From a virus: a stretch of 64,000 nucleotides of DNA. Both the position numbers and the translations under genes were made by a program. The DNA lies in the IMG/VR virus record IMGVR_UViG_3300007538_000022, positions 1 through 64,000 of that record, one strand, 5' to 3'. This document shows positions 13,583 to 56,571 of this stretch, one piece after another. The notes below the pieces were generated by a model, which saw only the letters and a program-made list of their open reading frames with translations, was not told where the DNA came from and did not search any database. The first letter of the stretch is position 1. Each line of letters begins with the position of its first letter.

Positions 13583-14029
13583 TCATGGAGCACGACTAGC
13601 ATCCTTCATTAATTGTACAAACTCATTTTTGTATGTTTGATTACTTAAACATTTTAGTAAAGCATTATTATAGACTTTAATATATTTATTGTAATTAAAT
13701 GTAACACTAGACGGGCTTATGGGTGTTAATACTATATCTCTACGAGTTTTTAACGCAGGATCAGCTAAAAACATTAAATCATTAAATCGTTTAAGTAATG
13801 CAGCATCACTAAAACATTTTTGTATATTTGGTTTTTCTGTAGCAATATATTGTTGCACTTTTTTTAATGCAGTAGGATCTTTTAAATTAGATGATTTTTT
13901 TTCTTGTTGATCAGGTTTTAGTACTCCAACTGTATTGTAGTTCTGCCATGCACTAGTTTTATCCAGACCTGTAGCTCTACCTACAATATCGGTTAACTCA
14001 CCTTCTGTTAAAAGTTCCATTATTTTCAT
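13583..14029 (-). CDS. Hypothetical protein with capsid-targeting-like leader
   Basis: MKIMELLTE|G. Confidence 0.65.
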   Translation of the reverse strand: MKIMELLTEGELTDIVGRATGLDKTSAWQNYNTVGVLKPDQQEKKSSNLKDPTALKKVQQYIATEKPNIQKCFSDAALLKRFNDLMFLADPALKTRRDIVLTPISPSSVTFNYNKYIKVYNNALLKCLSNQTYKNEFVQLMKDASRAP

Positions 14030-14031
14030 AT

Positions 14032-14517
14032 TTATTTCTTCCTTTTCATTCCATAATACGCACCGAGTGCCATTTTTTTACGTTCTTCTTTTGTTTTACC
14101 TTTAAACTTGGGATTTTTAGATTTTTGAAAATCTTTAATTACATCGCTGGCACTATCAGATTTTTTTATCTTTTCATCTAATCGATTATGTAAATAAGCC
14201 ATATAATCTTTAGTTTCCAGTTTAGAAGACTCTAATGATGGCAGATCAGAAATATTAATATTTTCTTGATTATCTAGTTCTTCGTAATCAAGTCGATGGT
14301 AAACATCACTAATAGCTTCTGATGCTCGAGTAATATACGATTGCATCCATCCGTCTAACCCTTCTTCTTCAGACACATGTTTTAACTTATTATGTAATTT
14401 AATTGCATACTTTGCAATTTTATATAGTTCTGCTCTTGCAAGTTGCACTTCATGATCTTGTTCAACTGCGCCTGCTAAATCTGCAAGACCTTCATGTAGT
14501 TTAGTTTTTCTTTTCAT
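14032..14517 (-). CDS. Hypothetical head-associated protein
   Basis: KLHE|G leader, basic C-terminus. Confidence 0.65.
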   Translation of the reverse strand: MKRKTKLHEGLADLAGAVEQDHEVQLARAELYKIAKYAIKLHNKLKHVSEEEGLDGWMQSYITRASEAISDVYHRLDYEELDNQENINISDLPSLESSKLETKDYMAYLHNRLDEKIKKSDSASDVIKDFQKSKNPKFKGKTKEERKKMALGAYYGMKRKK

Positions 14518-14536
14518 TTATTATTTCCTAATAGTT

Positions 14537-15043
14537 TTACATATTGCGTTTCATTACTTCGCCGGTAAATAAGTTTACATTTGAATCTAACGCATTTTTC
14601 ACTGGTTTTTTGTTTTTTTTCTTACGAGTAACAGTTGGTGCTGCAACTGATGCAATTGCTCCAGCAGAAGTAGATGAGGATTCAAATTGTAATCGTTGAC
14701 GGTTAAATATGTCGTCATTTGATGATTTAAACTCGTTTTCATATAACTTTTCAATTATATGCATTATATCTTCTTTATCAATGATGTACTCAGGCGATCC
14801 TAATTTAAACTTATTACAATATGTAACAATAGCACTATCTACTACTGGTTTTAAAATTTTCTTGTAATCCACGTGTTTATGTTTCTTTTTTAACATCTTA
14901 AGTTTTTCCAATACTGGGAAAAACTTTTTACGATAAAACAATGGATCGTTTTCTATATAATGCACAATGTCATCAACTATATCAAAGGGCAATACCGGTT
15001 TATCAGTATTTTGTGTTATGTCCATAAATTCATGTAGTTTCAT
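14537..15043 (-). CDS. Hypothetical head-associated protein
   Basis: MKLHEF leader; internal FE|SSSTSAGAIASV segment. Confidence 0.65.
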   Translation of the reverse strand: MKLHEFMDITQNTDKPVLPFDIVDDIVHYIENDPLFYRKKFFPVLEKLKMLKKKHKHVDYKKILKPVVDSAIVTYCNKFKLGSPEYIIDKEDIMHIIEKLYENEFKSSNDDIFNRQRLQFESSSTSAGAIASVAAPTVTRKKKNKKPVKNALDSNVNLFTGEVMKRNM

Positions 15044-15055
15044 ATGTTACCTTAC

Positions 15056-15397
15056 TTAATGATTATAAGTGATTAAATTTACTGTTCCATCAAAGTAAAT
15101 TACTTGTGCTCTTATCCAAACATAGTTACCGACTATATTTTGTATTTTACTAGCAGTTTCCATATGAGTTTCATACACATGTGCATCAAACCAATCAGAT
15201 TCATCAGGTGTAACTGCTAATGTTGCTTGAATGGAAATAATACCAGAAAAATTTGTATATGTATATTGTACAGTATGAATCCCATCACTTTGTCGATAGT
15301 ACCCATCACCTTTATATGCATCGCCTGTTACAACTAACATCGTGCTATCGCCTGGATGTGTTTGCGTTGTTAATATTGTTTCACTATTTATTTTCAT
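15056..15397 (-). CDS. Hypothetical virion protein
   Basis: 113 aa beta-rich ORF ending GNYVWIRA; late-promoter motif 5 nt upstream. Confidence 0.65.
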   Translation of the reverse strand: MKINSETILTTQTHPGDSTMLVVTGDAYKGDGYYRQSDGIHTVQYTYTNFSGIISIQATLAVTPDESDWFDAHVYETHMETASKIQNIVGNYVWIRAQVIYFDGTVNLITYNH

Positions 15398-15402
15398 AAT
15401 TA

Positions 15403-15410
15403 TATTTATC
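15403..15410 (-). promoter_or_regulatory. T4-like late promoter motif (representative copy)
   Basis: GATAAATA; TAAATA core also at 2981, 18475, 21724, 34366, 42831, 43322, 48409, 50457, 52103 (minus) and 21789, 55700, 59602 (plus), each upstream of a gene. Confidence 0.6.
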
Positions 15411-15420
15411 TAAACAAAAA

Positions 15421-15454
15421 AAAACCGTGATAGCTATTTAACTATCACGGTTTT
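15421..15454 (-). terminator. Rho-independent terminator after clpA
   Basis: AAAACCGTGATAG-8 nt-CTATCACGGTTTT followed by long T run on minus strand. Confidence 0.8.
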
Positions 15455-15469
15455 AATTTACATCAATAA

Positions 15470-17716
15470 TTAATTACATTGCAACTGTATTTTATCTGTA
15501 TAATCTACAGTAACAGATCCACCATCTTTTAATGCACCAAACAGCATTTCTTTCGATAAAGGTGTTTTAATTTCCTTATCAATTACCCGTTGCAACGGTC
15601 TTGCTCCCATTTTAGGATCAAATCCTTTTTCAACTAAAAAGTTTATAGCTTGTTCGGAAATATTAATTTTAATATTTTTATCTTGAACTAATTCCTCTAA
15701 TTCAGAAATAAATTTGTGAATAATTTTTATCATAGTAGGTTTATTCAATCTGGAAAATGTAATAATTCCATCTAATCTATTACGGAACTCTGGAGAAAAG
15801 TATCGTTTTAATTCATCGTCTGGATAACTTTGATCGGTATCGTTTGCAAATCCAATTGAACCTTTCTCTGCATCTCTTGCACCTAAATTAGTAGTCAAAA
15901 TTAATACACAGTGACGAGCATCAGCTTCTTTGCCATTAGATCCTGTAACCTTTCCATTATCCATTAACTGCAACAAAATTTGTGCAACATCTGGATGTGC
16001 TTTCTCAATCTCATCTAACAATAATACACAATTGGGATGTTCTTGTAATTTTGTAATTAATTGTCCGGTATTTTCTTCATGTCCAACATATCCAGGAGGA
16101 GACCCGATTAATTTTGCAACAGAGTGTTGTTCTTGATATTCGCTCATATCAAAGCGAACTAATTTAATACCTAGATGTTTTGCTAATTGTTTAGCGGATT
16201 CTGTTTTACCACATCCGCTTTGACCCATAAAAACAAACGCTCCTACTGGCTTATTTGCAGATTTTAATCCTGCATGACTAACTAGTATCTTATCGACTAA
16301 CGATTCAATAGCATCGTCTTGTCCAAATATATGAGTTTTTAAGTTGTTTTCCAGTTGTGCAATATGTGTAGATTCACTTTCTAAGATTTGTTCAACTGGG
16401 ATATTTAAAATTTTTGCTATTTCAACTTGTACTGATTTTTTAGAAACAATCTTCTCCTCATTAGTTGATGTTAACTTGAATCTAGAACATGCTAAATCTA
16501 TTAAATCAATTGCTTTGTCTGGCAATTTTTTATCTGCTTGATATTTGTTAGATAACTTAACCGCAGCGTCAATTGCATCGTCGGTGATAGTAGTATTGTG
16601 AAACGACTCATAATATTTTTTAATTCCTTGAACGATATCTATAGCAGTAGCTAAATCAGGCTCGTCGACTACAACCCGTTGGAATCTACGCATTAATGCT
16701 CTATCTTTCTCAAAATACTTTCGATATTCTTCCCATGTTGTTGATGCAACAACTTTAATATTTCCTTTTGATAATGCAGGTTTAAGCATATTTGCTAAAT
16801 CATTTGCATTATTTGAACCAGACCCAGCTCCACTAATCATATGAGCTTCGTCTATAAACAAAATACAATTTCCTTTTTTTATTAAAGCATTTAGAATTTG
16901 TTTAATACGTTCTTCAAAATCACCTCTATAACGGGTACCTGCAAGAACCGCTCCTAAGTCTAAGCTATAAACACTGTAATCTGTTAAAAATTCTGGAATG
17001 TCCTTATTGACAATTTTATATGCAATACCTTCGATTATTGAAGTTTTGCCTACACCTGGGTCACCTACTAACAGTACATTGTTTTTAGATCTTCTTCCCA
17101 ATGCTAACGCAAGTGATTCTATTTCCGACGATCTGCCAATGATAGGATCTATTTTTCCATTAGCAACTTCTTCATTTAGCAGTACAGTGTACTTAGTTAA
17201 TGGATCTTGCTTTCTTCTAGTTGGATATTCGTCATCATCTAAATCATCATCTAAATCATCATTTAAATCGTCGTCTAAATCGTTATCGATATTTGTTTTA
17301 ACAAACTCAGCAAATTTAGTTTTTGTAAGTCCAGATGCTTCTATTAAATAACATGCAATACTTTTTCTCTCATTTAAAATACTAGAAGTTAAATCAAGCA
17401 AATCTAAATGCGTCCTACCTGCAAACAGTACTTGTGTGAACGCTCGATTAAGAACTCGTTCTAACGATTGTGTTTTCTTAGGTTTATACTTTTCAGCACT
17501 AATGATTATGTCATCGCACTGTGAATTTAAATGCTCATTTACTGATTCAATAAGCTTATCAGTATCAGCTCCAGCAGCTTGCAACATTTCAATATATTCG
17601 TCATCTGCAAGCATAGCTTGCAAAAGATGTTCTAGTGTTATATATTCATGTTTTAATGTTTTTGCCTGCGAAGTAGCGTGTTCAAATACTACTAATAATT
17701 CTTTCGATGGTTCCAT
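15470..17716 (-). CDS. clpA: ATP-dependent Clp protease ATP-binding subunit
   Basis: Clp N-domain HEYITLEHLL; Walker A GDPGVGKT and GQSGCGKT; RFDMSEY; IGF loop; GARPLQR; no ClpB middle coiled coil. Confidence 0.9.
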   Translation of the reverse strand: MEPSKELLVVFEHATSQAKTLKHEYITLEHLLQAMLADDEYIEMLQAAGADTDKLIESVNEHLNSQCDDIIISAEKYKPKKTQSLERVLNRAFTQVLFAGRTHLDLLDLTSSILNERKSIACYLIEASGLTKTKFAEFVKTNIDNDLDDDLNDDLDDDLDDDEYPTRRKQDPLTKYTVLLNEEVANGKIDPIIGRSSEIESLALALGRRSKNNVLLVGDPGVGKTSIIEGIAYKIVNKDIPEFLTDYSVYSLDLGAVLAGTRYRGDFEERIKQILNALIKKGNCILFIDEAHMISGAGSGSNNANDLANMLKPALSKGNIKVVASTTWEEYRKYFEKDRALMRRFQRVVVDEPDLATAIDIVQGIKKYYESFHNTTITDDAIDAAVKLSNKYQADKKLPDKAIDLIDLACSRFKLTSTNEEKIVSKKSVQVEIAKILNIPVEQILESESTHIAQLENNLKTHIFGQDDAIESLVDKILVSHAGLKSANKPVGAFVFMGQSGCGKTESAKQLAKHLGIKLVRFDMSEYQEQHSVAKLIGSPPGYVGHEENTGQLITKLQEHPNCVLLLDEIEKAHPDVAQILLQLMDNGKVTGSNGKEADARHCVLILTTNLGARDAEKGSIGFANDTDQSYPDDELKRYFSPEFRNRLDGIITFSRLNKPTMIKIIHKFISELEELVQDKNIKINISEQAINFLVEKGFDPKMGARPLQRVIDKEIKTPLSKEMLFGALKDGGSVTVDYTDKIQLQCN
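17231..17287. repeat. Imperfect 12-bp tandem repeat encoding acidic ClpA linker
   Basis: TCATCTAAATCA-like units; DNDLDDDLNDDLDDDLDDD. Confidence 0.7.
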
Positions 17717-17719
17717 GTA

Positions 17720-18469
17720 TTAATCCTCAGATTTTGTGCAATAGTATAACTCTTCTAACTTTTGTAAAGTAGTATCGTTATTAATAATAGGTATTTTAAC
17801 ATCAATATGCACTAATATATCACCTGTTATATTAGTTTTAATGTTACGAACGCCATAGCCTTTAATGCTAAACACTGTATTTGGCTGTGTTCCTTTTGGA
17901 ATAGTTAGTTTAACTTGTTTTCCGTTTAGTGTATGTATTATTATAACACATCCTAACATTAAATCAAAGACATTTATTACTTGTTTTGTAATTAAATTAT
18001 TTCCAGATCGTGACCAATTTTCATCAGTTAATATTTTAATTTTAACTAATAAATTTCCACGAGGTGCATATGGAGAATAGCGATCGTCGCCTAATCCTTT
18101 AAAACTGATAACATCATTGTTGTTAGCACCAGGTGGAATATTAATTTTAACAACTTCCACTGACCCTGAAAATAATGTATATTGCAAAAACAACTCTGTT
18201 CCATACACTGCATCAAAAAAAGAAATTTGTGCAGTTAATGTTAAGTTTCTGTTTTGTTTCTTGTTGTGGTATTTTGGTATAAATGATGCATCGTATGCTG
18301 ATCGTTTAAATGGATCTTTTAATACATCGTATGCTTTATTAATTAGTTTCAGCTTTTCAGCATCCCCACCTCGATCCGGATGATGTATCATTGCTAATTT
18401 TCGATATGCAGCTTTTATATCATCGTCAGATGCTTTATTAGAAATGCCTAAGATTATATAGTAATTCAT
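17720..18469 (-). CDS. DnaJ-class co-chaperone without zinc finger (CbpA-like)
   Basis: J domain with HPD; DnaJ C-terminal IPPG and IPKGTQ repeats. Confidence 0.88.
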   Translation of the reverse strand: MNYYIILGISNKASDDDIKAAYRKLAMIHHPDRGGDAEKLKLINKAYDVLKDPFKRSAYDASFIPKYHNKKQNRNLTLTAQISFFDAVYGTELFLQYTLFSGSVEVVKINIPPGANNNDVISFKGLGDDRYSPYAPRGNLLVKIKILTDENWSRSGNNLITKQVINVFDLMLGCVIIIHTLNGKQVKLTIPKGTQPNTVFSIKGYGVRNIKTNITGDILVHIDVKIPIINNDTTLQKLEELYYCTKSED

Positions 18470-18487
18470 TATACTATTTAATCAATT

Positions 18488-19507: not shown

Positions 19508-19510
19508 TAA

Positions 19511-20341
19511 TTACCCCAATAGTTTTGTTAATGTATTATACCCTGCAATTCCATCAGGAATTAAATTATTATCTAATTGCCATTTTTTAAGTCGTCGTTC
19601 GGTATTAGGACCAAATATGCCATCTGCTGCTATTTTCAAAGCGTGCTGCAGTCTAATAACATCGTCACCTCGAGAACCTAACGATAATACTGTAAATTCT
19701 TTACCTTGATCGAGAACTGATAATGCCTTATTCCACTTTTTAATTCGATCATCTAATCCATTTGAACCACCGTTAATTTTAACCGACAGACCGACAATAT
19801 CTTTTTTATCGCAAAAGACATTTAAATTGTTCTTTTCCCAAAACCAGCAAGCTGATTCTACTGCACCATTAGGCGTTCTTACATATTCTACTGCTTTGTC
19901 AAGCGTAATATTTACAGCTTGACTAAAATGTTTATAATTATTTTTCCCAGTTAGTTGTATTAACCCACCTCCGCGATATCGCCATCCATCACCTGACGCT
20001 TCGTCGCTATTACCTAATCTATTTGAATAAACTATATTTGCAATTCTTTCAGGTTGTCTGTGATACAAATCTGCTGATCTTCCTGCTTTTATGAAATACT
20101 TGGGAAATACTTTATTCAATGCAGTTGAACTATAATTTAAATTTTCACTAAGTACAGTAAATTCGCATGATTCATGCGAACACTGTGCAATAAAGCACGC
20201 TACCCGATCTACAGTATTAATTTTCCATTTTGGTAGCATAACACACAATGCAGAATACCAGCTATCTACTTCCTGGTTAGATGGGATTAATTCTGCTAAA
20301 TAATCTCGTTTAAAATTAAAGTTAAATCCATATTCTTTCAT
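19511..20341 (-). CDS. GH19 endolysin with C-terminal peptidoglycan-binding domain
   Basis: FIAQCSHES, ENLNYS, YRGGGLIQLTGKNNY; DGIFGPNT and DGIAG repeats. Confidence 0.9.
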   Translation of the reverse strand: MKEYGFNFNFKRDYLAELIPSNQEVDSWYSALCVMLPKWKINTVDRVACFIAQCSHESCEFTVLSENLNYSSTALNKVFPKYFIKAGRSADLYHRQPERIANIVYSNRLGNSDEASGDGWRYRGGGLIQLTGKNNYKHFSQAVNITLDKAVEYVRTPNGAVESACWFWEKNNLNVFCDKKDIVGLSVKINGGSNGLDDRIKKWNKALSVLDQGKEFTVLSLGSRGDDVIRLQHALKIAADGIFGPNTERRLKKWQLDNNLIPDGIAGYNTLTKLLG

Positions 20342-20348
20342 TATCTTC

Positions 20349-21059: not shown

Positions 21060-21061
21060 TA

Positions 21062-43334: not shown

Positions 43335-43796
43335 TTATTTAAATGGATTTGTCGAATTATAAGAAAGCAATTCTTTTATGTTAATCCGTTTTGCCTTTGA
43401 TCCAGATTGCTGTGTTATTATGTTTGGAAATTCGTCTTTAGACTTAACTCTATTGTTAGCTGGCAAACGTAGTATTATTGGCATTTTAGATATATTTGAT
43501 TTTTTAATCATAGTAGCTCTTGCTCGTCCTTCATGATCATAAACTTTGCCATCTATAGTTATATCTAAAGTAGGTAACCAATCGCTTGTAAATTTTTCAT
43601 TATCAAATTGCCCGTACTGTAATGCACGGTCTGATGCTTGTCCGTTGCTATCGTCTGCAAGAAATAAAAAGTCATCTGGAGATATTTCAGCAACCGCAGC
43701 CCTAGATCGATCATCTGGATAGACGTTATTCTTAATCTCTTTTTTCCATTGCTGATCTGAAATATAGATTCGATTAGTTATTTCTACAATCTTCAT
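43335..43796 (-). CDS. ParB/Srx-like protein with capsid-targeting-like leader
   Basis: MKIVEI leader; PTL....GKVYDHEGRARA resembles ParB DGxHR region. Confidence 0.45.
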   Translation of the reverse strand: MKIVEITNRIYISDQQWKKEIKNNVYPDDRSRAAVAEISPDDFLFLADDSNGQASDRALQYGQFDNEKFTSDWLPTLDITIDGKVYDHEGRARATMIKKSNISKMPIILRLPANNRVKSKDEFPNIITQQSGSKAKRINIKELLSYNSTNPFK

Positions 43797-44642
43797 TTAT
43801 GATCCAGATTTTGCAGTTGCAGTAGAAGTATTGTTAGCAACAGTTGTATTCATAGAGGAAACATATTTGTTATACTTATTAGTTCGATCGTCTAACCCAT
43901 TTAAGCTACTGTTAATACGTTTAGTTACTTGTTTAATATCTGTAAAATCAGTTACATGTGGTCTTACTCTTTTTTTCCAATACATTATAGCAACTTTTGC
44001 AGCAGTTTCAGGTTCAGATAATTTATTTGCATTTGTCCAAGTACTAGTAAAATCGTCACCTAACAATTTACCCATCCAATTATAGTTCCATCTACCAGTA
44101 AGTTGAAAATAACCTCTACCGATAAATCGTTTTGCATCATTTAAATTTTTATTACCTAAACTTTTATTTTTTAAATAACTTTTAATCCTAGGATTAGTTT
44201 CAACCATTCTAGTAAAATTTTGGCATTCGTGTGCTGCTTGTGCCATAAATGCTGCTAATTCTGTTCCTTTGATTCCAGCTTTTTTCGCAGCATCTAACAA
44301 TGTTTTTTCACTGGGCTGCTTAGTTAATAATTTAACAGTAGCTGCTTGTTTAGTAGTCTTTACTGTTTTAGGCTGATCTGCATTTGATTTAGGTGTACTT
44401 TTAGACACTGAGTCTATCTTGGGAGATTTTTCTTGAGATGTTGGATTTCTAATTTTATCCAATTCTTCTTGCGAATAAGTTTGATAAGTAGGGTCTTTAG
44501 TAAAGTCTGGATGATTATAGTCTTTAACTTTCATTAACCCAGCACCTGCTCCTGCAGTAACTGCTGCACCAATCCCTAAACTTGCTGCTAAATCCTTCCA
44601 ACCTTCGTTAATCATGTCGTCAGTTATTTCTATCATTTTCAT
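43797..44642 (-). CDS. Second GH19 muralytic enzyme, probably virion-associated
   Basis: AAFMAQAAHEC, FIGRGYFQLTGRWNY, VTKRIN..NGLDDR; MINE|G leader and Ala/Gly-rich segment. Confidence 0.82.
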   Translation of the reverse strand: MKMIEITDDMINEGWKDLAASLGIGAAVTAGAGAGLMKVKDYNHPDFTKDPTYQTYSQEELDKIRNPTSQEKSPKIDSVSKSTPKSNADQPKTVKTTKQAATVKLLTKQPSEKTLLDAAKKAGIKGTELAAFMAQAAHECQNFTRMVETNPRIKSYLKNKSLGNKNLNDAKRFIGRGYFQLTGRWNYNWMGKLLGDDFTSTWTNANKLSEPETAAKVAIMYWKKRVRPHVTDFTDIKQVTKRINSSLNGLDDRTNKYNKYVSSMNTTVANNTSTATAKSGS

Positions 44643-44654
44643 ATTGGTATTCCG

Positions 44655-44903
44655 TTATGTTTGCCGTATACTATACATTTTTTTCTCTATTCGACTTAAT
44701 GCTTCGCGTTGTACTCGTAATTGTGCTTCAAGTGCTTGAACATATCGTTGAGTAGGTATTTTTTGAATAACTCCATTTTCTCCTAGTAGCTCAAAATGGT
44801 CTACTCCTTGCCCTTTTAACCCACCTGCAACTCTGTTAGGATTTTTAGTATCAGTGGAAGACTGCTGGTGTTTTTTTCCATACATTGTATTTAAATAATT
44901 CAT
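44655..44903 (-). CDS. Hypothetical protein
   Basis: 82 aa co-oriented ORF. Confidence 0.65.
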   Translation of the reverse strand: MNYLNTMYGKKHQQSSTDTKNPNRVAGGLKGQGVDHFELLGENGVIQKIPTQRYVQALEAQLRVQREALSRIEKKMYSIRQT

Positions 44904-45895
44904 TGTAATTCCTGTTTTTTATCTAAAAGTTGTTTGAGATTATCTCGATAATTTAATAATAACTTGCCGACTAACTTATAAAATCGTTTAAATATTTTAT
45001 ATTCTGAATAATTAGTCTTATCAAAATAAGAAGCATAGTTTGCCATTATGCTACTATAATATTCTTCTTTCATAAAGTTGCCATTTTTAATAAAGATTGA
45101 TAACCGTTTAAGGTAAAATTTTATATCTTCAATACTAGCATAATTAATATTATCTTCAATTAATTCATGTAAGATGTATAATACTGCTTCGTTTGCATAT
45201 GCTGATATTTCTTGTGGACTAGACAAATATAATTTTAAATCATTTTTGTCCCTTTTACCAGACATAATTGAATCTATTGCTTTATTAAAGATTTGCTGAT
45301 CATTAGTTAAATATGATCGATATTCTTTTGATTGTTTATTCTGTTTTAAATCTTGTTGCATATGTACTAATTCATGTATAAAAACATAAATTAGTTTTGC
45401 AACAGAATTACTTATTTTGTAAATAGGACTTTTAAATTTAATAGATTTAATAGTTTTGTATGCACGTTGGATGTTATGAATTGTATTAGTTTCATCAAAA
45501 TCATTTTGATTAAATAATTCTTGTGTAATACTATTTTTTAAATTTTCCAAAATAGCATCAAGTAAATCTATATTTAATAAAATTTCAGTGTTTGACGCTT
45601 GGCCAGGTACTGTTAAATTTTTTGAAAATTGAATCTCTAATGTATCTGCTAATTCCATATTTAATATATGTTTTGTAAAATATCTAAACTTTTTTATAAT
45701 ATTATTTTTTAAAATCCGTAGTAAAGTTTTATCTAAAAATAAATAAAAATCATCATAAGATATTAATTTTTGATTACTATATTGTTGATAGAATATCTCA
45801 CCAATAGAAGCAACAGTATCATGCAACGCATTGTCAACTAGTGATAACAATTCATCTCTATAATTGCTATATGAAATTACTTCATGTAGTTTCAT
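44900..45895 (-). CDS. HExxH zincin-like protein, paralog 1
   Basis: FIHELVHMQQ, YLSSPQEISAYANE; start MKLHEV after GGAG. Confidence 0.65.
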   Translation of the reverse strand: MKLHEVISYSNYRDELLSLVDNALHDTVASIGEIFYQQYSNQKLISYDDFYLFLDKTLLRILKNNIIKKFRYFTKHILNMELADTLEIQFSKNLTVPGQASNTEILLNIDLLDAILENLKNSITQELFNQNDFDETNTIHNIQRAYKTIKSIKFKSPIYKISNSVAKLIYVFIHELVHMQQDLKQNKQSKEYRSYLTNDQQIFNKAIDSIMSGKRDKNDLKLYLSSPQEISAYANEAVLYILHELIEDNINYASIEDIKFYLKRLSIFIKNGNFMKEEYYSSIMANYASYFDKTNYSEYKIFKRFYKLVGKLLLNYRDNLKQLLDKKQELQ

Positions 45896-45967
45896 AATAT
45901 AATACACTCCGATATACGATCAATTAAACTAGCTCTATATTGTGTTAATTGTTGATATACAATTTTA
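45890..45967. repeat. 78-bp direct repeat, copy 1
   Basis: 77/78 identical to 46857..46934. Confidence 0.95.
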
Positions 45968-45977
45968 TCGCTGTGAT

Positions 45978-46862
45978 TCATAAATCCCTCTCTTTGTTAA
46001 AATGTGTTGCTAATGATTGGTCAATATAATTGTACGGTTCTTCTCTAGCTGCTGCACGTTTTAAATAACGGTTCTCAGGGTCTATTTTACTAGTATGTGA
46101 TAGCATTGCGCTATGTGTTCCAACTTTAGTAGCACCTACTTTAAATATTTTATCTTCAACAAAACTAACGTACTTAACCTGAGAGTTATTTTCAATAAAC
46201 TTATTAATTACATCGCCTAAAATTTTGATACATTGCGAATATGCAGCAGTGTCAAATGGCATTTTTTGTTTACCAGTACCGTAATATTTTTTCCAGTCTG
46301 CTGTGAATAAGCCGCCAGACTGTTGTGTGTCATCTGTGAATAATCCGGGATTATCATATTGTGGGAAATCCCCCCATAAACTACTAGGAACAATTCCTAA
46401 TGGTTCAGACACTGTTACAAAATAAACCGGATATTTATTATCGTTTATAATTCTGTTATAGCTTTTGTATATTCCACGAGCAGCATTTGCCCATGGTTTA
46501 GTTTTACCACAAGGTACAAATGCTACCATTTTATATTTAGAGGGAACTTCATACTTAACAATTTCTCGATGCCAGTTAGCAATCTCAGGATGCTTAAATA
46601 ATGCAAGTGTTTCGCCAGGAGTGTATGCTGTGAGCTCAGGATTAAGCAATGGATTACTAGCTAGACTACGTTGTACCAACCATTTTCTAAATTGCGGCCA
46701 CATTTCTTTTGAAATATATTTAGGAGAACCTAATTGATCTATTTCTGTTTGAGTGAGGTTGGCAAATGCGTTTTGTTTTTCTTCTGAACTGATATTAGTC
46801 GGTGGGGCAATACTTTTGATAGATATTTTTCCTGCTTCCTGTATAAATTCACTTGCTTTCAT
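45978..46862 (-). CDS. DUF5591/ArcS-like domain protein with capsid-targeting-like leader
   Basis: FVPCGKTKPW, VTVSEPLGIVP, PQYDNPG; MKASEFIQE|A. Confidence 0.6.
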   Translation of the reverse strand: MKASEFIQEAGKISIKSIAPPTNISSEEKQNAFANLTQTEIDQLGSPKYISKEMWPQFRKWLVQRSLASNPLLNPELTAYTPGETLALFKHPEIANWHREIVKYEVPSKYKMVAFVPCGKTKPWANAARGIYKSYNRIINDNKYPVYFVTVSEPLGIVPSSLWGDFPQYDNPGLFTDDTQQSGGLFTADWKKYYGTGKQKMPFDTAAYSQCIKILGDVINKFIENNSQVKYVSFVEDKIFKVGATKVGTHSAMLSHTSKIDPENRYLKRAAAREEPYNYIDQSLATHFNKERDL

Positions 46863-46934
46863 AATATAATTCACTCCGATATACGATCAATTAAACTAGC
46901 TCTATATTGTGTTAATTGTTGATATACAATTTTA
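46857..46934. repeat. 78-bp direct repeat, copy 2
   Basis: Last about 20 codons of 46871..47911 plus RBS and ATGAAA of next gene. Confidence 0.95.
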
Positions 46935-47911
46935 ATGAATCGTTTATAGATAGCAAACTCTTTTTTATTTGCAGGTTTATAGAAAAAATCTCGATACGTT
47001 TGAATAATCTGATAACTTGTTGTATTATTTGACAAGCCTAATATTGCTTGATCCAACTTAAATAAAACATCACGTACAGAATCTTTGTTTTCAAGTGAAG
47101 AATCTAATACAGTACCTAAAATCTCTAAAATAATCCCATAAGCAGATTCTTGTGCATACGCAGCTATTTCTTGAGGACTAGCATAATATAATTTAAATTT
47201 GTAATCAGTGTCTTTGTTTTTCATTAGTTCCGCAAACTTTTTCTTATCCTTCATTAAGTAGGATCTGTACTCAAGTGCGTCTACGTTTTTTTGATAATGC
47301 AGTTGTCTTGAAATTTGGATAAAATGTCCAATTTCATGGATAAGAGTTGTTACAAAAGGAATTGTCACGTCTCGATATTCTCTAAACATAAAATTCCAAG
47401 TATTAAACATTTTTTTCAATACCGAAATCGCTTCACCTACTGTTGGAATGTATGCATCTTCATCTTCTTCTTCTTCTTCATCATCATCGTAGTTAAACCC
47501 TAGACTATCTAGTTCTAACACATCTGTTAACATCATATGCATAGAGTCTATCACAACAGACACCATATCCATTATTAAGCTAATATTAACGACTATATAT
47601 TCATTTCCAACAGCTTTTGCTTGAATTGACGGTCCTAACGCATCAAACCGAACTCTAACTAATGTTTTTTCATATATTCTATTAGACATTGCATCTAACA
47701 TTGTAGAAAAAAGTGAGTCTGGATCGTTAAAGTTAAGTTCTGATCTCATGCTTATAGGGGGTTCTAATAACTCGTCAGTAGGATCGTCTTCCTCTAATCG
47801 ATTAACCAATGCTCGAAGCGTATCGTCCATTGCTTGTAAAATTGCTGCTTTAAGTTTAACTTGCAGCTCTCTATGATCTACTGCTTCGATTATTACATCT
47901 TTTATTTTCAT
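46871..47911 (-). CDS. HExxH zincin-like protein, paralog 2
   Basis: LIHEIGHFIQ, YYASPQEIAAYAQE; MKIKDVIIE|A; acidic tract. Confidence 0.65.
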   Translation of the reverse strand: MKIKDVIIEAVDHRELQVKLKAAILQAMDDTLRALVNRLEEDDPTDELLEPPISMRSELNFNDPDSLFSTMLDAMSNRIYEKTLVRVRFDALGPSIQAKAVGNEYIVVNISLIMDMVSVVIDSMHMMLTDVLELDSLGFNYDDDEEEEEDEDAYIPTVGEAISVLKKMFNTWNFMFREYRDVTIPFVTTLIHEIGHFIQISRQLHYQKNVDALEYRSYLMKDKKKFAELMKNKDTDYKFKLYYASPQEIAAYAQESAYGIILEILGTVLDSSLENKDSVRDVLFKLDQAILGLSNNTTSYQIIQTYRDFFYKPANKKEFAIYKRFIKIVYQQLTQYRASLIDRISE

Positions 47912-47912
47912 T

Positions 47913-48353
47913 TTAGTCCTCAGTATTGAAAAAATCTAAACTTAATACATTGCAATATATTGTTTTCTTTCCTTGAAGATAACTAGCGACAATTCTATGG
48001 TTGCCATCAGCTGCATAGTATATTTCATTAGCAAGATATAGCAAAGGCGGTTCAAAAGAATCGCCTTTATTTTTCACGATATTTTTAATATGCTCGGAGC
48101 TTAGTTTTTCTTCAATACACTTAATAGATTTAATTGGCACTTCCATTCGTGTTCCATATAACATATTCCTTTGTACAAATGGAACGTCAGGATACATATA
48201 TTCATACACTTCGTCGATTATATCCATTGTATCTGAAACAATTTTACCTTTTGCAACTGGCAATGGATTGATAAAATCATATATTGGCTTTTTTTGCTTA
48301 TTTTCTGCAATATAAGATTGCACTACTCCATGTATAATTTCACTTAAATGCAT
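47913..48353 (-). CDS. ParB/Srx-like protein
   Basis: PPLL..YYAADGNHRIVA; MHLSEII..YIAE leader. Confidence 0.65.
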   Translation of the reverse strand: MHLSEIIHGVVQSYIAENKQKKPIYDFINPLPVAKGKIVSDTMDIIDEVYEYMYPDVPFVQRNMLYGTRMEVPIKSIKCIEEKLSSEHIKNIVKNKGDSFEPPLLYLANEIYYAADGNHRIVASYLQGKKTIYCNVLSLDFFNTED

Positions 48354-48425
48354 TAAATATTTCCTATATTTTTAGTACAATGTATTGCACGTTTATTGTA
48401 GATAGAAATATTTATGCAAAATTGG

Positions 48426-49445
48426 TTACATCAACTGATCTTTAAACTTATTATAAAGTTCAGTTGTTGCAAGATTTTTATTTTTTGATTCGCACATAAT
48501 ATCGGCAGTATTTGAAAAGGACAATGCCCATTCATTTACTGTATGATTTGGGTAATTATCACTATGCGCTCGTAACTTTTGTCGTTTACATCCAGACTCT
48601 TTCAACAGTTGCATATTTGGAAAGTCATTTTCAATATGACCAACAAATTCGTGTCTACTATAACTATAATGAATTACCGGTCTTACTCCGTTCCACGAAT
48701 CTATAATACGTAGATATCGACTGTCATTTGGTTTGATATATTCTCCAGTGTTAACAAAATGATGATGAATATCTAATACTAATGCACAATCATTAGCTAG
48801 TTCTAAACTAGCATCGATACCCCATTTATTTTCGTCATTTTCAATAGTTATACAATTCCTTGCTTCAGACGATAGTCTAGGTAATACTTGTTTAATACCA
48901 TCAGGCCCACGTTTACCTGAAATATGAACATTAATTTTAAAATCTTGAAATTGTTTTCCATATCCCATCCATCGAGCAATGTCGGTGTGATATTCAAATT
49001 CTTTAATTGAATTTTCAACAATAGCATCATTATCGCTTGCTAAAACAGTAAATTGACCTGGATGCATTGATAATCTAATATCATTATCTCTTGCAATTTT
49101 TCCAATTTTTGATAATTCAGATTCGCATAGAGATCTAACATCTGATTGTTTCCAAAACGGTTGAAACTGCTCATGAGTGTATAATGGAAGACAATCACTT
49201 CCTATACGATACATTCTTAAACTTTGATCTAATTTTGAAACATATTCAATTGCATTTTTTAATGCAAGTAAGTTATGCTGTGTTAAGTACCATAACCGTT
49301 CATTTACACCATATGCTGTTTGTTCAGATAACCATTTAACTGTTGTAGATTTAAAATTTAAATTAGGTACAGCAACTACTTTATTTTTTACTTTTTCTGA
49401 TATTTTACAAGCAAACCCTAGACGTTTGATATTTTGATTAAACAT
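48426..49445 (-). CDS. uvsE: UV damage endonuclease
   Basis: RLGFAC, RLSMHPGQF, IENDE, VLDIHHH, HYS, AHSD, DIMCESK; start at Met17 of track ORF. Confidence 0.92.
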   Translation of the reverse strand: MFNQNIKRLGFACKISEKVKNKVVAVPNLNFKSTTVKWLSEQTAYGVNERLWYLTQHNLLALKNAIEYVSKLDQSLRMYRIGSDCLPLYTHEQFQPFWKQSDVRSLCESELSKIGKIARDNDIRLSMHPGQFTVLASDNDAIVENSIKEFEYHTDIARWMGYGKQFQDFKINVHISGKRGPDGIKQVLPRLSSEARNCITIENDENKWGIDASLELANDCALVLDIHHHFVNTGEYIKPNDSRYLRIIDSWNGVRPVIHYSYSRHEFVGHIENDFPNMQLLKESGCKRQKLRAHSDNYPNHTVNEWALSFSNTADIMCESKNKNLATTELYNKFKDQLM

Positions 49446-49525
49446 GATTATTTTTTCCAAGTTAGTGAATTGCGCTTGATTGATGTTAAGCATAGAGGTA
49501 ATGTGTACTATACAACATAGTGTAC

Positions 49526-49555
49526 ATTATACTGTAGTTTTTATTGATTTGTCAA
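49526..49555 (-). promoter_or_regulatory. Sigma70-type promoter
   Basis: TTGACA-18 nt-TATAAT upstream of uvsE. Confidence 0.65.
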
Positions 49556-49629
49556 TAGTTTTTGTAAGTTCGATTTAACCGTTGAATTGCTGCATAAATA
49601 TATGTATCAATTTGATTACATTATATACA

Positions 49630-50451
49630 TTAGTACGATCCCCAATTAGATTCTTCTTCGTCGTGTGCTAATTGTGCTTTAGTGGGTTGTATTGGTGAAT
49701 ATTTGTTATCTACTAATTTTCTATTTTTAATGATAGAAGTTTTAAAGAAAAGTGCTTGAATCGGTTCATTATGATGTATGATTCCAGTATTATCAATAAA
49801 ACCATCTATTCCAAGATGTTTTGTGAATAATACAGTTAGTGCAGATGGAATTGACTTTGGTGTTGGTAAATAAGGAATATGCTGAACTGCGTAACAAAAC
49901 GCCCAAAATCTACCACCTGGTAACTTTGATCTTAACGCTGTTTTAAAGACTTTTTGTTTCAACTCGTTTATATATTCTACTAAAAATGATGTATCAACAT
50001 CTTCGATACTAATTTCATAGTCAATTTCTTTCATTTGTGCAAGGTATTGAGTAATCCAAGAATAGATAATACGTTCTTCTATGACTTTGTAGTAATGAGA
50101 AACTTGTTCTTCGGATATTGATGGCAAATCGATAATATTTCCAGAAACTGAAAACAAATTAGCATACGGAGATGTTCCTGCAAATGGTAAAAAATAAGCA
50201 GATTTGCCATCTTTCATAATGTTATATACATATTCAAGTGGATATGCGTATATTCCAACTGGAGTGTTGTATGATGTTTGAGGATTGATTCCTAACTTCT
50301 CAATGTTTGTAAATGAAATAAACGCATTTTTAATAGTCGAGTTAGGCAATGTACCTGCTTTTTCTAAGTAATCTTTAATATGCTGATTAATAGATATTTT
50401 TGGATTTAATATCGAATGTTTTCGTGCTTCTAAGATATCTTTTACTTTCAT
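49630..50451 (-). CDS. Hypothetical protein with capsid-targeting-like leader
   Basis: MKVKDILE|A; KLGINP..NTPVGIYAYPL..LPFAG; late motif upstream. Confidence 0.7.
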   Translation of the reverse strand: MKVKDILEARKHSILNPKISINQHIKDYLEKAGTLPNSTIKNAFISFTNIEKLGINPQTSYNTPVGIYAYPLEYVYNIMKDGKSAYFLPFAGTSPYANLFSVSGNIIDLPSISEEQVSHYYKVIEERIIYSWITQYLAQMKEIDYEISIEDVDTSFLVEYINELKQKVFKTALRSKLPGGRFWAFCYAVQHIPYLPTPKSIPSALTVLFTKHLGIDGFIDNTGIIHHNEPIQALFFKTSIIKNRKLVDNKYSPIQPTKAQLAHDEEESNWGSY

Positions 50452-50463
50452 TACAGTATTTAG

Positions 50464-51171: not shown

Positions 51172-51174
51172 GTT

Positions 51175-51810
51175 TTACCCATATCTGCAATGACTTTTTT
51201 TAGTTTCCCATAATTCTACTGCAGATACAGTTGCTATATTACCGATTTTTGATTGTGCATAATCTTTTAAAAATTTACAAATGTTTTCACTTGTAGGACA
51301 AAAATCAACAATAACAAAACTATCACGGTGTAATTGTAAATTTTCATCATCTACCGGAAATTCAGCTCCTAAATGAATAATCTTATTTTTAAGAAAGTTT
51401 TCTTTAATTGCAATATCATACGGACTTACTGTAGTAATTATCATACAATTTGGATCATTAATATCAACCATAAATTTATGATCTAATATTTCATCTAAAA
51501 ACTGTTTCATAAAGTTTAAATTTTTGAAATCAGTTACCATAAACGACTGGTCTAATTCAGATGATGATAACTCAATTTTTACTTCGTATGAATGTCCATG
51601 TAAATGTTTACATGCACAATCTGTTGTTATACTTAAATCCTCATGCTCCAACTTTTGAGACCATACACGATGTCCCATTTCAAAATTAAATGTCTTATCA
51701 ATTGACCAAATCGGCTTTTGTTCCTGTGGTTCAACGTCAGGAGTAACTGGAATATCTTCTACTACTGGCAATTCTACTACTTTTTTTGATTTTTTAAAAA
51801 AACTAAACAT
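51175..51810 (-). CDS. queD: 6-carboxy-5,6,7,8-tetrahydropterin synthase
   Basis: FEMGHR, CKHLHGHSY, LDHKF, PTSENI, WETKKS. Confidence 0.9.
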   Translation of the reverse strand: MFSFFKKSKKVVELPVVEDIPVTPDVEPQEQKPIWSIDKTFNFEMGHRVWSQKLEHEDLSITTDCACKHLHGHSYEVKIELSSSELDQSFMVTDFKNLNFMKQFLDEILDHKFMVDINDPNCMIITTVSPYDIAIKENFLKNKIIHLGAEFPVDDENLQLHRDSFVIVDFCPTSENICKFLKDYAQSKIGNIATVSAVELWETKKSHCRYG

Positions 51811-51836
51811 GATTTATCCTATATTTAAAGTTTAAA

Positions 51837-52094: not shown

Positions 52095-52108
52095 AGTATT
52101 ACTATTTA

Positions 52109-53440: not shown

Positions 53441-53447
53441 TGTTTTC

Positions 53448-55235
53448 CTATATGTGCATTATATTAAATGGAGCTGCTTGTAAAATTTGATCTTTTCTAA
53501 ATGTTGTTGTACTTCCAGAAAACCATTGATTAAACAGTTCTGTATCTGTAATTGAAACTGTAGGTAACATACTTGCTAAAGTATCAATTGCAATAATATC
53601 TTTTAAATCTCTTTCACTCCATGAACCTAATCCTTTTTGATATTGTATATCTAATTTGTTATCTAACTTTGACACGTCGCTAAATGTATATGCCCACTCT
53701 TTAACTTTGTTATTCTTTTTTCCAATAGCAATCGGAGTTCTTAGAATTTTAAGGAGTCCGTTATTTAAATGGTCTGGAAAAAACTTAAACATAAATAACG
53801 CCACTAAACCTCTAATTCTAGAGCCGTCTGCATCTGCATCAGTTGCGATACAAATTTCTGCTTCTGGGAAAGTAGTTATAATAGCATACAACTCAGATAG
53901 TTCTTTGTTAGCCATAAACTTTTGATGGGACACTTCTAGAACGTTTAGTGGAACTCCTTTCAACGCATAAAATGCGTTACCTTTCCTACCGAGACACTTA
54001 ATAAGACCGCCCGAAGCTGAGTCACCTTCAACAATTAGTATACGTTTTGTGCCACCAATTGCAGGAAAGTATTTATCAGACGCTATTTTCTTTTTCTTTT
54101 CTAGCTTATTAAGATCTTTTTTAGCAGCTAATTCTTCCTGTAGCCTAGTGTACGCACAAATTTCATCAATTAATTCTTCATTAGTTAAAAGCTTTTTTAC
54201 TATCTTCGTTACATCAAACTCGCCAATCGCATCTCGACACTCTGTAGCGGAATTTGTAATTCGTTCTTTTGTTTGTGAATCAAATTTTAATGCAGGGAAA
54301 TTATTAATAATTGCATGAACTCTTAAATGTTGTTTCAATCTAGCAGCAGTAATATCAACTTTCTTTTTCTTTTTTAATACTTCCCTAAATTCGGAAATAA
54401 CAGCATTTGTAAAGTAGTCAATGTGTGTACCTGCTTTAATGCCTAATCCATTAACTACTGAATATGTTTGAAATGCTCCATCTGATTTTGTAATACCAAA
54501 CAATGCTTTTTCTGTTTGAAACTGATCGCATTTTCCAAAAAAGTCTTCAAATTTTACTTTAACTACTTGGTTATTAAATTTGAATTTAATTGTATCAAAC
54601 GCTAATGCTAACGATTTTACACGTTCTTCGATCATTTTAACATGATCTTGATCTATATTTGTAATACCAAAAAAACTATAATCTGGTTTAAATTTAACAG
54701 TTGTACCTTTATGCGACGATGCTTTAGTGTTAACTGTCTTAATTTGACCTCGTGAACCAACTAATTGAACTTCTGTAGTACCATCAGAAGATGTTGCATG
54801 AAACATTTCCGTTGTTACAAATGTAATCATTGATCCTACGCCATTCATACCAATTGATTCTCGATTAGAATCATCAAAATTTGATCCTGCTCTTGCCCTA
54901 GTAAATGCTGCAACCATTTGGTATTCTAAACCGTCTGGAGTTTCAATTTTATTGCTGGGGATCCCCCTTCCATTGTCAGATACTGTAACTATGCCATAAT
55001 TATCTATAGTAATATCAATTTTATTAGCATATTTGCGATTAGTTCTTACATGTTCGTCTACCGAATTATCTATAATTTCATTAATAATCTTTAGTAATCC
55101 CCCAACAATATTTACTTTTGTAAATTCAGCATCTGCAAACACTGTTTCTTCTTGAGAAACTTGACTTCCTCCATACATAGAAAATCTCTTTCTAATATGG
55201 GAAGCGTCACTTAAAATTTTAAAATCATTATTCAT
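53448..55235 (-). CDS. Type IIA topoisomerase ATPase/TOPRIM subunit (gp39+60-like)
   Basis: EIIDNSVDE, DNGRGIP, GMNGVG, VEGDSA, TDADADG, KGLGS. Confidence 0.93.
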   Translation of the reverse strand: MNNDFKILSDASHIRKRFSMYGGSQVSQEETVFADAEFTKVNIVGGLLKIINEIIDNSVDEHVRTNRKYANKIDITIDNYGIVTVSDNGRGIPSNKIETPDGLEYQMVAAFTRARAGSNFDDSNRESIGMNGVGSMITFVTTEMFHATSSDGTTEVQLVGSRGQIKTVNTKASSHKGTTVKFKPDYSFFGITNIDQDHVKMIEERVKSLALAFDTIKFKFNNQVVKVKFEDFFGKCDQFQTEKALFGITKSDGAFQTYSVVNGLGIKAGTHIDYFTNAVISEFREVLKKKKKVDITAARLKQHLRVHAIINNFPALKFDSQTKERITNSATECRDAIGEFDVTKIVKKLLTNEELIDEICAYTRLQEELAAKKDLNKLEKKKKIASDKYFPAIGGTKRILIVEGDSASGGLIKCLGRKGNAFYALKGVPLNVLEVSHQKFMANKELSELYAIITTFPEAEICIATDADADGSRIRGLVALFMFKFFPDHLNNGLLKILRTPIAIGKKNNKVKEWAYTFSDVSKLDNKLDIQYQKGLGSWSERDLKDIIAIDTLASMLPTVSITDTELFNQWFSGSTTTFRKDQILQAAPFNIMHI

Positions 55236-55255
55236 GTAATTTCCTTGATAAGAAG

Positions 55256-55429
55256 TTAGAGTGAACTATGTTGTTCTGTATGTTCACTATCGTTATTAGT
55301 TGATTTCATTTTTTTGTAATAGATAATGCAGAAAGAACATTTTCGGTCACTTCCCTCAAGTCTATTAATTAACTCACTAAGGGACGGGTAGTCTTCTTCT
55401 GATATATTTCTACATGTACATGCTATCAT
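55256..55429 (-). CDS. Bfd-like small Cys-motif protein (57 aa, not in track)
   Basis: MIACTCRNIS..RKCSFCII; ATG abuts upstream stop. Confidence 0.6.
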   Translation of the reverse strand: MIACTCRNISEEDYPSLSELINRLEGSDRKCSFCIIYYKKMKSTNNDSEHTEQHSSL

Positions 55430-55636
55430 TTATTCAGGTTTTTTAAACATTGCGGAATTTTTGCAGGTAACAGTGCTATAACTAATTGTGCTAATTCCTT
55501 CGTTCTTTTCACAAACAGAAGTAGCCCATTCAATATCTTTAATAGTAATTTCATTATTTGAAATGGTCATTCCAACCATTACTGCTAAACTACAAATTAT
55601 AATAATAGCAAGTATAATATCAGTCATTAATTTCAC
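55430..55636 (-). CDS. Small membrane-anchored protein
   Basis: N-terminal TM, two C-terminal Cys. Confidence 0.6.
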   Translation of the reverse strand: MKLMTDIILAIIIICSLAVMVGMTISNNEITIKDIEWATSVCEKNEGISTISYSTVTCKNSAMFKKPE

Positions 55637-55668
55637 CTTTTATTTTTTATTAAAACATATATGTATAT

Positions 55669-55697
55669 ATTATATAGCATTTTTTTACTTCTGTCAA
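55669..55697 (-). promoter_or_regulatory. Consensus sigma70 promoter
   Basis: TTGACA-17 nt-TATAAT upstream of topoisomerase operon. Confidence 0.8.
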
Positions 55698-55728
55698 GCT
55701 AAATAGTTAATACTATACAGGAGTACAA

Positions 55729-56571
55729 ATGTTATCACTAAAACAACTATTAATAGAAAAAATTATATTAAGTAATGAAATTTTTTCTAAAATCGAACGA
55801 GCAGTAGACAAATGGTTTAATATAGTTAGTAATGGTCAATTAAGTGTTCAGTACGATCGGCGAGATCGAATTAAAGAAGAAAAAGGGAAACTTGAAATCC
55901 TACGCAAAACCCTTCATCCTACTATTAACAAAGTATTAAAAGATAATTTAAATTTCATAAAAGATCAACACTATTTAGGTCATAAGTTACGACTAGTTAT
56001 TAATACTAATACATTTGCAGACGATGTTTCAGTTTCTGGGTGGTTTTCAAAAAAACCTTTCAAATTGAGCAAATCACCGCACAGTTTAGACTACTTTCTA
56101 GTATGTGAGCTATATCTCGAGGTTCCACAAAAAGTTAACAAGAATACTACCCGTGATGAATTAATATCAGTAATTTCACACGAACTAACTCATTTGATTC
56201 AATTAGCTCGAACTAAAAACAAAGACCACCAAATAACTGCTAAACCTAGTAATCTAAAAAATTCTGACAACGACACTAACTACTTAGCATTAAGATATGA
56301 AATTGATGCATTTGCACAATCTGTTGCTTCTGATATCATTTTACATGCAAAACAGTTTGACGATCCTTATCAAACTGTTCAAAATCAATTAACTGCTGTG
56401 AAACATGGTTTAGACAGCCTATTTGGTAAAAAAATAATCCCTAGTGATAGCTATCATACATACAAGAAAAAGTTTTCAAATATTAAAGATGATCGTAACC
56501 GTACTGCTGTTTGGAAAATATTTAACAAAAAATTGTACGAAAAATTAGTTAATTGGTTAGAACATAATTAG
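55729..56571 (+). CDS. HExxH zincin-like protein, paralog 3
   Basis: ISHELTHLIQ, YLALRYEIDAFAQS; AGGAG RBS; TAAATA at 55700. Confidence 0.7.
   Translation: MLSLKQLLIEKIILSNEIFSKIERAVDKWFNIVSNGQLSVQYDRRDRIKEEKGKLEILRKTLHPTINKVLKDNLNFIKDQHYLGHKLRLVINTNTFADDVSVSGWFSKKPFKLSKSPHSLDYFLVCELYLEVPQKVNKNTTRDELISVISHELTHLIQLARTKNKDHQITAKPSNLKNSDNDTNYLALRYEIDAFAQSVASDIILHAKQFDDPYQTVQNQLTAVKHGLDSLFGKKIIPSDSYHTYKKKFSNIKDDRNRTAVWKIFNKKLYEKLVNWLEHN

Follow-up and report, generated by a model that had tools for sequence, protein, structure and literature searches.

A T4-type N-terminal leader, probably a capsid-targeting propeptide, on largely unrelated proteins of a PA5oct-like freshwater jumbo phage

We analyzed IMG/VR record IMGVR_UViG_3300007538_000022, a 90,274-bp contig (31% GC) of a freshwater jumbo phage, whose first 64 kb (positions 1 to 64,000, the window) carry a series of genes with a similar N-terminal leader of 5-13 residues. 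CheckV puts the completeness of the contig at 25%, and the minus strand holds nearly all genes. The initial annotation had listed 11 such N-termini and read them as T4-type capsid-targeting leaders on a packaged payload. All 11 were found in the sequence, at the gene starts given below. In what follows, coordinates are those of the window unless otherwise indicated, and an arrow marks the putative cleavage point.

A first cluster of three minus-strand genes begins with a 148-amino acid (aa) orphan (13583..14029) that has no Pfam or PHROG match and starts with MKIMELLTE↓G (codons 14003-14029). Next to it lie a 161-aa orphan (14032..14517) with the atypical basic leader MKRKTKLHE↓G and a 168-aa orphan (14537..15043) with the short leader MKLHE↓F. 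Both show weak matches in the related genome G005, the former to positions 170205-171383 and the latter to positions 173996-174370, where the product starts with MRITDLLE↓N.

A second minus-strand block spans positions 43335 to 50451. Its first members are a 153-aa orphan without family match (43335..43796), with the leader core MKIVEI, and a 281-aa GH19 muramidase-like protein (43797..44642; Pfam GH19, 24.8 bits; PHROG endolysin, 1.7e-29). In the latter, the MKMIEITDDMINE↓G leader is directly followed by the Gly/Ala-rich hydrophobic segment LAASLGIGAAVTAGAGAGLM, a low-complexity K/T/S/P-rich linker and the GH19 domain; its orthologue in a second relative, G001 (40% identity), starts with MRATEFITE↓R. 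Because the hydrophobic segment lies right behind the leader, this protein could instead be a membrane-tethered lysin, and a signal-anchor-release (SAR) endolysin was considered. A GH19 paralogue (19511-20341), which has no leader, Gly/Ala-rich segment or K/T/S/P-rich linker, is probably the ordinary endolysin. The block continues with a 331-aa HExxH-family protein (44900..45895, paralogue A′), whose truncated leader MKLHE↓V ends in a Glu (E5) that aligns with the leader-end Glu of the family, a 294-aa DUF5591-fold protein (45978..46862) with leader MKASEFIQE↓A, and a 346-aa HExxH-family protein (46871..47911, paralogue A) with leader MKIKDVIIE↓A. The frames 44900-45907 and 45978-46874 really begin at internal ATGs, positions 45895 and 46862, respectively. 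The DUF5591-fold protein (Pfam DUF5591, 27.2 bits; structure model with a predicted local distance difference test [pLDDT] of 94, top fold match AF0587/2q07) is the best-supported cargo among the leader proteins. In both structure models (45978-46862 and 46871-47911) the leader, residues 1-17 in the latter, was the least confident segment and was unpacked against the fold. Two further members are a 146-aa open reading frame (ORF; 47913..48353; PHROG 17560, function unassigned) with the relaxed leader MHLSEII...YIAE↓N, and a 273-aa orphan-family protein (49630..50451) with leader MKVKDILE↓A.

The last leader gene of the window is on the plus strand (55729..56571; CTAAATA at -30) and encodes a 280-aa HExxH protein with the weak leader MLSLKQLLIE↓K. 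Its HELTH...YEIDAFAQ shares HExxH...EIxAxAQ motifs with HEIGH...PQEIAAYAQ of the A/A′ family, of which it is likely a distant member. The HExxH (motif in three proteins), GH19 (Pfam and PHROG) and DUF5591 (Pfam and fold) labels of the initial annotation are borne out. A ParB-like label had no Pfam support at E ≤ 1, and was left with only the DGNHR motif of 47913-48353. The tagged proteins had also been called unrelated, and most of them are: BLASTP among the tagged contig proteins returned one paralogue pair (44900-45895 and 46871-47911), which together with 55729-56571 (motifs only) makes up a single HExxH family, and across genomes at least seven mutually unrelated families bear the tag.

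The leaders fall into three grades. Strong leaders, with the core and a hydrophobic-x-E end followed by a small residue, are those of 13583-14029, 43797-44642, 45978-46862, 46871-47911 and 49630-50451; 14537-15043, 43335-43796 and 44900-45895 have the core only; and 14032-14517, 47913-48353 and 55729-56571 have atypical or weak leaders. Those lacking the clear end show at most hydrophobic-x-E at residue 5. More leader ORFs lie outside the window (contig positions 64637-65482, 88258-88464 and 88464-88718). The first of these (L086 637-1482, plus strand) starts with MRKLDILFE↓N and carries a phosphoribosyltransferase (PRTase)-like ...VVDDKATSGST... motif, with a weak Pfam match (E 0.07).

The frequency of the leader was measured with two patterns, both picked after viewing the contig data. 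The strict pattern, MK[ILVMA]x[ED][ILVF], was present in 10 of the 28 MK-start ORFs (0.33 expected, binomial P 6e-13), and the broad one, ^M[KR]x2-3[ED][FILV][FILVMTSY], in 13 of 112 contig ORFs when 0.45 were expected from internal positions. A weight matrix derived from the local leaders missed the Arg-type dialect of G001 (MRAxEF[IL]xE), and for this reason a regex admitting K or R was adopted and fixed. It returned 18 hits in the previously unseen G005 (1.39 expected, 13-fold, P 1.5e-14), and 6.7-, 4.8-, 3.7- and 4.0-fold enrichment in the relatives G001, G002, G003 and phage PA5oct, respectively. Two control genomes, also previously unseen, were not enriched (G008, 2 vs. 2.25, 0.9-fold; G009, 1 vs. 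1.51, 0.7-fold). The excess over background, which the initial annotation had made its first check, is present on the contig and holds in a genome not used to define the motif. Seven of the 13 broad hits are packed tightly into the 43335-50451 block, two are found with the atypical 14032-14517 at 13583-15043, and the contig region around 88 kb holds another two. A hydrophobic-x-E-[AGN] end with Glu at residue 8-13 is seen in 6 of the 13 hits, and I/L-x-E followed by a small residue also closes the leaders of 14032-14517 and 47913-48353; this type of site shows no enrichment over all ORFs and is concentrated among the leader hits.

A recurrent start of this kind could carry no signal, if translation-start preference (AAA at codon 2 and an AT-rich 5′ coding region free of structure) coincided with family-specific N-terminal helices. 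MK is the commonest start on this 31% GC contig (28-32 of ∼112 ORFs), the leader codons are AT-rich and AAACTACATGAA is common to three leader genes. From the ATG on, the first 15 nt of the genes that start at 15043 and 45895 are identical, and the T at -1 brings this to the 16 first reported; the KLHE codons of 14032-14517 are the same as in these two genes. However, the enrichment survives conditioning on an M[KR] start (13 vs. 1.19 expected, P 5e-10), the peptide pattern is retained, with Arg for Lys, in relatives at 36-46% GC, and jumbo genomes of comparable AT content that lack the gp21-type prohead protease are not enriched. Leaderless homologues, described below, start precisely at the junction. 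With these observations, we regard an origin in start preference as very improbable.

A tag with these properties, the T4 capsid targeting sequence (CTS), was reportedly described by Mullaney and Black in 1996. The CTS of the T4 internal proteins IPI, IPII and IPIII and of Alt has been reviewed (PMC3012670, PMC9026906). IPII and IPIII start with MKTYQEFIAE↓A, and IPI with MKTFKEFTSTTTPVSTITE↓A (NC_000866). Mutagenesis assigned targeting to the hydrophobic or aromatic residues 4 and 7 and processing to residues 8 and 10 (PMC9026906), and gp21 cuts after Glu, as in Alt at ITE-6 (PMC5694885). The leader described here is likewise a ∼10-aa tag at the extreme N-terminus of otherwise unrelated proteins, and is near-identical to MKTYQEFIAE↓A in the local MKASEFIQE↓A, in MRAKEFISE↓G of G001 and in MKQTFLQFLAE↓A of a 49630-50451 homologue. 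The hydrophobic pair, by sequence comparison at local positions 3 and 6/7, and the P3/P1 pair (I/L-x-E, then a small residue) are retained, although the local consensus is one residue shorter. In both systems the cargo is variable and exchangeable, its genes are small and clustered, and a gp21-type protease is encoded by the clade. The systems differ in that the tag is carried here by a ∼360-kb PA5oct-like freshwater jumbo phage rather than by a T-even phage; that 13 tagged genes are found on a quarter-genome, and 18 in G005, vs. 3-4 in T4; and that the local cargo consists mostly of predicted enzymes of 150-350 aa. The mature parts gave no PHROG or Pfam match to internal-protein families, so that only the tag is alike.

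Three cargo families have a conserved junction. For the DUF5591 family, 291 homologues of 45978-46862 were collected, and the conserved start [ST]-I-K-S-[VI] was locatable in 74. The protein begins right at this motif in 31 of them (MKKTIKSV..., MATIKSI...), and the other 43 have a 7-27-aa extension ahead of it. In 40 of the 43 extensions the five residues preceding the motif include a Glu, which is placed exactly two residues ahead of it in 28. Of these 40, 32 have I (23) or L (9) at P3, and an equal number (32) have A, S, G or T at P1′. By these counts, the extension ends in the gp21 consensus at the very point where the leaderless proteins start. This modularity is the strongest evidence that the leader is a putative targeting propeptide, and the split would offer a natural experiment on the recruitment of an enzyme into the virion.

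The 14 aligned sequences of the HExxH family are 19-26% identical to the window protein, and in all of them the leader ends in E before a conserved [AS]-I-[SN]-x-T; where residues are inserted the insert ends in E too. The family alignment was what found these homologues: a single-protein scan of viral contigs gave none, and tblastn on cultured phages no match. Nothing significant was retrieved from PDB (profile) or by Foldseek, and no Pfam relative was found. In two IMG/VR contigs (L010 5726-11635 and L011 5773-11568) the HExxH domain lies inside open frames of 1,932-1,970 aa, measured stop to stop; from its first Met, the L010 frame reads MNIQELSTFSL..., resembling G001 113642-115957. In the 49630-50451 family, 37 of 38 homologues (the exception is distant) have a variable 8-11-aa leader ending in E, and the junction E↓[AGS]-R-[KR]-N-P...NPKIS is conserved despite the variation in leader sequence.

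The relatives' genomes were located via two cargo families. G005 (complete, 372 kb, with direct terminal repeats) has 62 of 120 ORFs in common with the contig, in syntenic order and at a mean identity of 45%, and G001 (364 kb) has 45 of 120, at 41.5%; G002 and G003 are more distant. A DNA search of cultured phages with the window returned no close relative. The contig encodes T4-type replication proteins, among them a topoisomerase II large subunit 39% identical to that of Straboviridae. The capsid protein of G001 shares 64-67% identity with its counterparts in PA5oct (66%), Vibrio 2.275.O and 121Q-like coliphages, and the Clp/chaperone/FolE/QueD gene set of the contig is also present in PA5oct. 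On these two grounds, the source phage is assigned, by sequence, to the T4-related, PA5oct-like jumbo phages of ∼360 kb.

The gp21-type protease (PF03420) was found in six relatives (G001, G002, G003, G005, G006 and G007), and all six have leader-type family members. The five relatives with 3.7- to 13-fold leader enrichment likewise encode such a protease. Neither G008 nor G009, both near-complete and without leader enrichment, has it. The relatives' capsid proteins have a hydrophobic-x-E↓small site aligned to the LTE↓A site of T4 gp23, the G002 and G003 proteases, like T4 gp21, begin with ...LLIE↓, and ORFs at the scaffold position, by position alone, lie beside the protease and the major capsid protein. 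The two controls, G008 (L155-L173, 373 kb) and G009 (L139-L154, 317 kb), are jumbo genomes that have DUF5591-family genes and a ClpP-like gene and lack the gp21-type protease. An in-frame stop interrupts the ClpP-like match in G009 (TAA) and in G007 (TAG).

Jumbo phages phiKZ and SPN3US, which package many proteins, also remove N-terminal propeptides after Glu from inner-body and ejection proteins, by a gp21-related S80 prohead protease (PMC5694885, PMC10052503). Their sites are A/S/G-x-E in long and diverse propeptides, whereas the tag here is short, stereotyped and T4-like, and the P3 of the DUF5591 leaders is I/L (32/40) rather than the phiKZ-type A/S/G. The source phage is T4-related, not phiKZ-like.

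The unusual chaperone and protease set of the contig (ClpA, ClpS, ClpP, DnaJ, GroEL/ES, Hsp20 and IF1; window 15470-17716; contig 66381-66974, 71668-71967 and 72029-74585) bears on the proposal that the leader serves another phage system, as a degron or adaptor tag for ClpS/ClpA/ClpP or as a membrane or secretion signal. A cut after the first Glu would expose F or L, classic ClpS N-degron residues, and the hydrophobic segment behind the GH19 leader would suit a membrane signal. Yet ClpS, present in G001, G005 and G006, is missing in the leader-bearing G002, G003 and G007, a ClpP-like gene is found in both leader-free controls, and T4 has the same tag without Clp genes. The leader is also too short and too charged for a Sec/Tat signal. 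Since the distribution of Clp genes among the relatives does not follow that of the leader, a link to the Clp system was rejected, and we judge the whole proposal highly unlikely.

Virion detection was taken from the electrospray tandem mass spectrometry (ESI-MS/MS) marks in the record of PA5oct, the closest cultured clade (Lood et al., 2020, PMC7318152), with a detection background of 27%. PA5oct has the Clp/chaperone/deazaguanine set and leaders on MS-detected proteins, but fewer leader ORFs (5-6). The detected leaders include (M)KIKDILVE↓S, MFLKDVKITE↓S and, on a 73-aa ORF that separates portal and scaffold, MKINDIITE↓G; other detected proteins start with MKLFEVF, MHLFELF and MRLDEI. PA5oct yielded no homologue of any local cargo protein. 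Two leaderless minus-strand ORFs that flank the first leader cluster have MS-detected homologues there: a 113-aa ORF (15056..15397) matches PA5oct 195960-196394 (31% identity, E 8e-15), and a 131-aa ORF (13181..13576) matches 216266-216541 (42% identity, E 4e-20). These PA5oct homologues adjoin ClpA and DNA polymerase. By sequence comparison, 15056-15397 marks the first leader cluster as belonging to a structural locus that lies downstream of ClpA, and in G005 leader ORFs occupy the same slot. This synteny lends the virion evidence some support.

The small leader-type ORF between portal and scaffold, present in G005 as in PA5oct, occupies the slot of T4 gp67/gp68. Together with the cleavage of core proteins by T4 gp21, also after Glu (PMC5694885), it favors counting the tagged proteins as accessories of the prohead core or scaffold, which would be targeted to the head and then degraded rather than injected. 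Several cargoes are nevertheless folded enzymes of 270-350 aa (HExxH, GH19, and DUF5591 with pLDDT 94) with a single junction site and no multiple internal sites, and the cargoes are accessory and variable between genomes. A role as core proteins is thus unlikely, if less so than start preference or a Clp or secretion signal.

These data suggest that (i) the shared N-terminus is probably a T4-type capsid-targeting propeptide cut after I/L-x-E; and (ii) the tagged proteins are, with nearly the same likelihood, packaged, as argued from the T4-tag match, the co-occurrence with the protease, the DUF5591 split, the conserved junctions and the MS-detected leaders of PA5oct. By the T4 model, the tag (M-K/R, a hydrophobic pair at i/i+3 and I/L-x-E) would bind the scaffolding core in head assembly, the core-bound protein would be enclosed in the prohead, and a gp21-type (Peptidase_S77) protease would cut after the leader Glu, freeing the mature protein inside the head. 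It would then probably be ejected with the DNA, like T4 IPI-III and Alt. For the tagged proteins we infer each of these steps, from core binding and cleavage to virion presence and injection. Among the predicted cargo are three putative HExxH metallopeptidases from a new family, together with a GH19 wall hydrolase and a DUF5591-fold protein; several other members are orphans. That this cargo, once injected, serves as a takeover or anti-defence kit, as initially proposed, is speculation.

Several observations weigh against this interpretation. The 90-kb contig (25% complete) has no Peptidase_S77 (gp21), Gp23, capsid or scaffold gene, and for this reason the packaging machinery is taken from relatives of 41-45% mean identity. 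The proposed cut after I/L-x-E is well supported by comparison, through T4 similarity, protease co-occurrence, the DUF5591 split and the junctions, and not through a protease or capsid gene of the contig itself. In about half of the local leaders no hydrophobic-x-E↓small end can be clearly made out, and some leaders have just 5 residues. Look-alikes occur, since T4 lysozyme, which is no CTS protein, starts with MNIFEML (NC_000866). The association of the motif with MS detection in PA5oct is weak (core, 3/6, P 0.21; relaxed, 7/14, P 0.056; Fisher). The origin of the leaderless DUF5591 clade was not recovered: viral contigs gave none, and genome contigs just distant matches in metagenome-assembled genomes. 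Finally, late-promoter-like motifs front blocks and not most genes, ATAAATA lying within 70 nt of just 3 leader genes. Of the 36 coding-strand ATAAATA copies, 17 are intergenic (10% of the contig is intergenic), with copies upstream of tail-fibre genes. The TAAATA motifs noted ahead of the leader genes thus stand at block level but not gene by gene.

The leader genes are packed tightly beside structural genes, and the leader cargoes are accessory, differing between genomes. The DUF5591 gene is bracketed by two copies of a 92-nt direct repeat (45876..45967 and 46843..46934, 92% identical). The repeat comprises the final 20 codons of an A-type gene, a ribosome-binding site and the first codons of the following leader gene; in its downstream copy, the 3′ end of an HExxH gene survives as an untranslated relic. 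The DUF5591 gene is 82% identical to a G005 copy at a non-syntenic position, when the mean between the genomes is 45%. The repeat pair and the identity outlier read as a signature of cassette exchange, with cargo genes apparently acting as exchangeable cassettes, and from this one pair and one outlier we infer recombination at the leader. In the polymorphic internal-protein loci of T-even phages, diverse IP genes share only the CTS (Repoila et al., 1994, cited in PMC3012670). There as here, cargo bodies differ and the leader and flanking DNA (here the 92-nt repeat) are conserved, but the local recombination is deduced without comparison across strains. More tentatively, and with the odds somewhat against it, the 9-aa tag may be a plug-and-play packaging address that enzyme cassettes gain or lose by leader/junction recombination. 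Each phage would then inject an enzyme set of its own, at least a dozen strong and including the new HExxH metallopeptidase family, a GH19 and a DUF5591-fold nucleic-acid-related protein, to act on the host before phage gene expression.

The principle of the T4 CTS is known, and what is new is the phage group and the set of cargo enzymes. The open-access papers on this clade that were checked make no mention of a leader tag, and the terms prohead protease, propeptide and capsid targeting are absent from the PA5oct proteome paper (PMC7318152). Should the tag function as it does in T4, the pre-packaged, first-acting proteins of a large and poorly known group of environmental jumbo phages, to which relatives of PA5oct, a therapy candidate, belong, would be recognizable by a simple sequence rule. 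These proteins, most of which are orphans, would be prime candidates for anti-defence and host-takeover functions, and the tag could become a handle for loading proteins into engineered jumbo phages, as the T4 CTS is for T4.

In or beside the second leader block lie two genes without leader, a UvdE UV-damage endonuclease (48426-49493; Pfam 2.4e-39) and a second QueD/PTPS-like gene (51175-51810). The contig also carries giant tail-fibre-like ORFs and a deazaguanine operon, and a separate 163,946-bp contig encodes proteins identical to those of the window (P0004, P0124). In G001, two small ORFs (13507-13854 and 200850-201236; 115 and 128 aa; L027 and L037, also L023 and L024) match only the mature N-arm of the capsid protein, with the motif ...P.IRR..P...A..IVGVQPMT.... 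They were considered as carriers of a second targeting tag, which was rejected because the match to the Gp23 model covers the mature N-arm and not the propeptide; they may be capsid-protein fragments or decoys.

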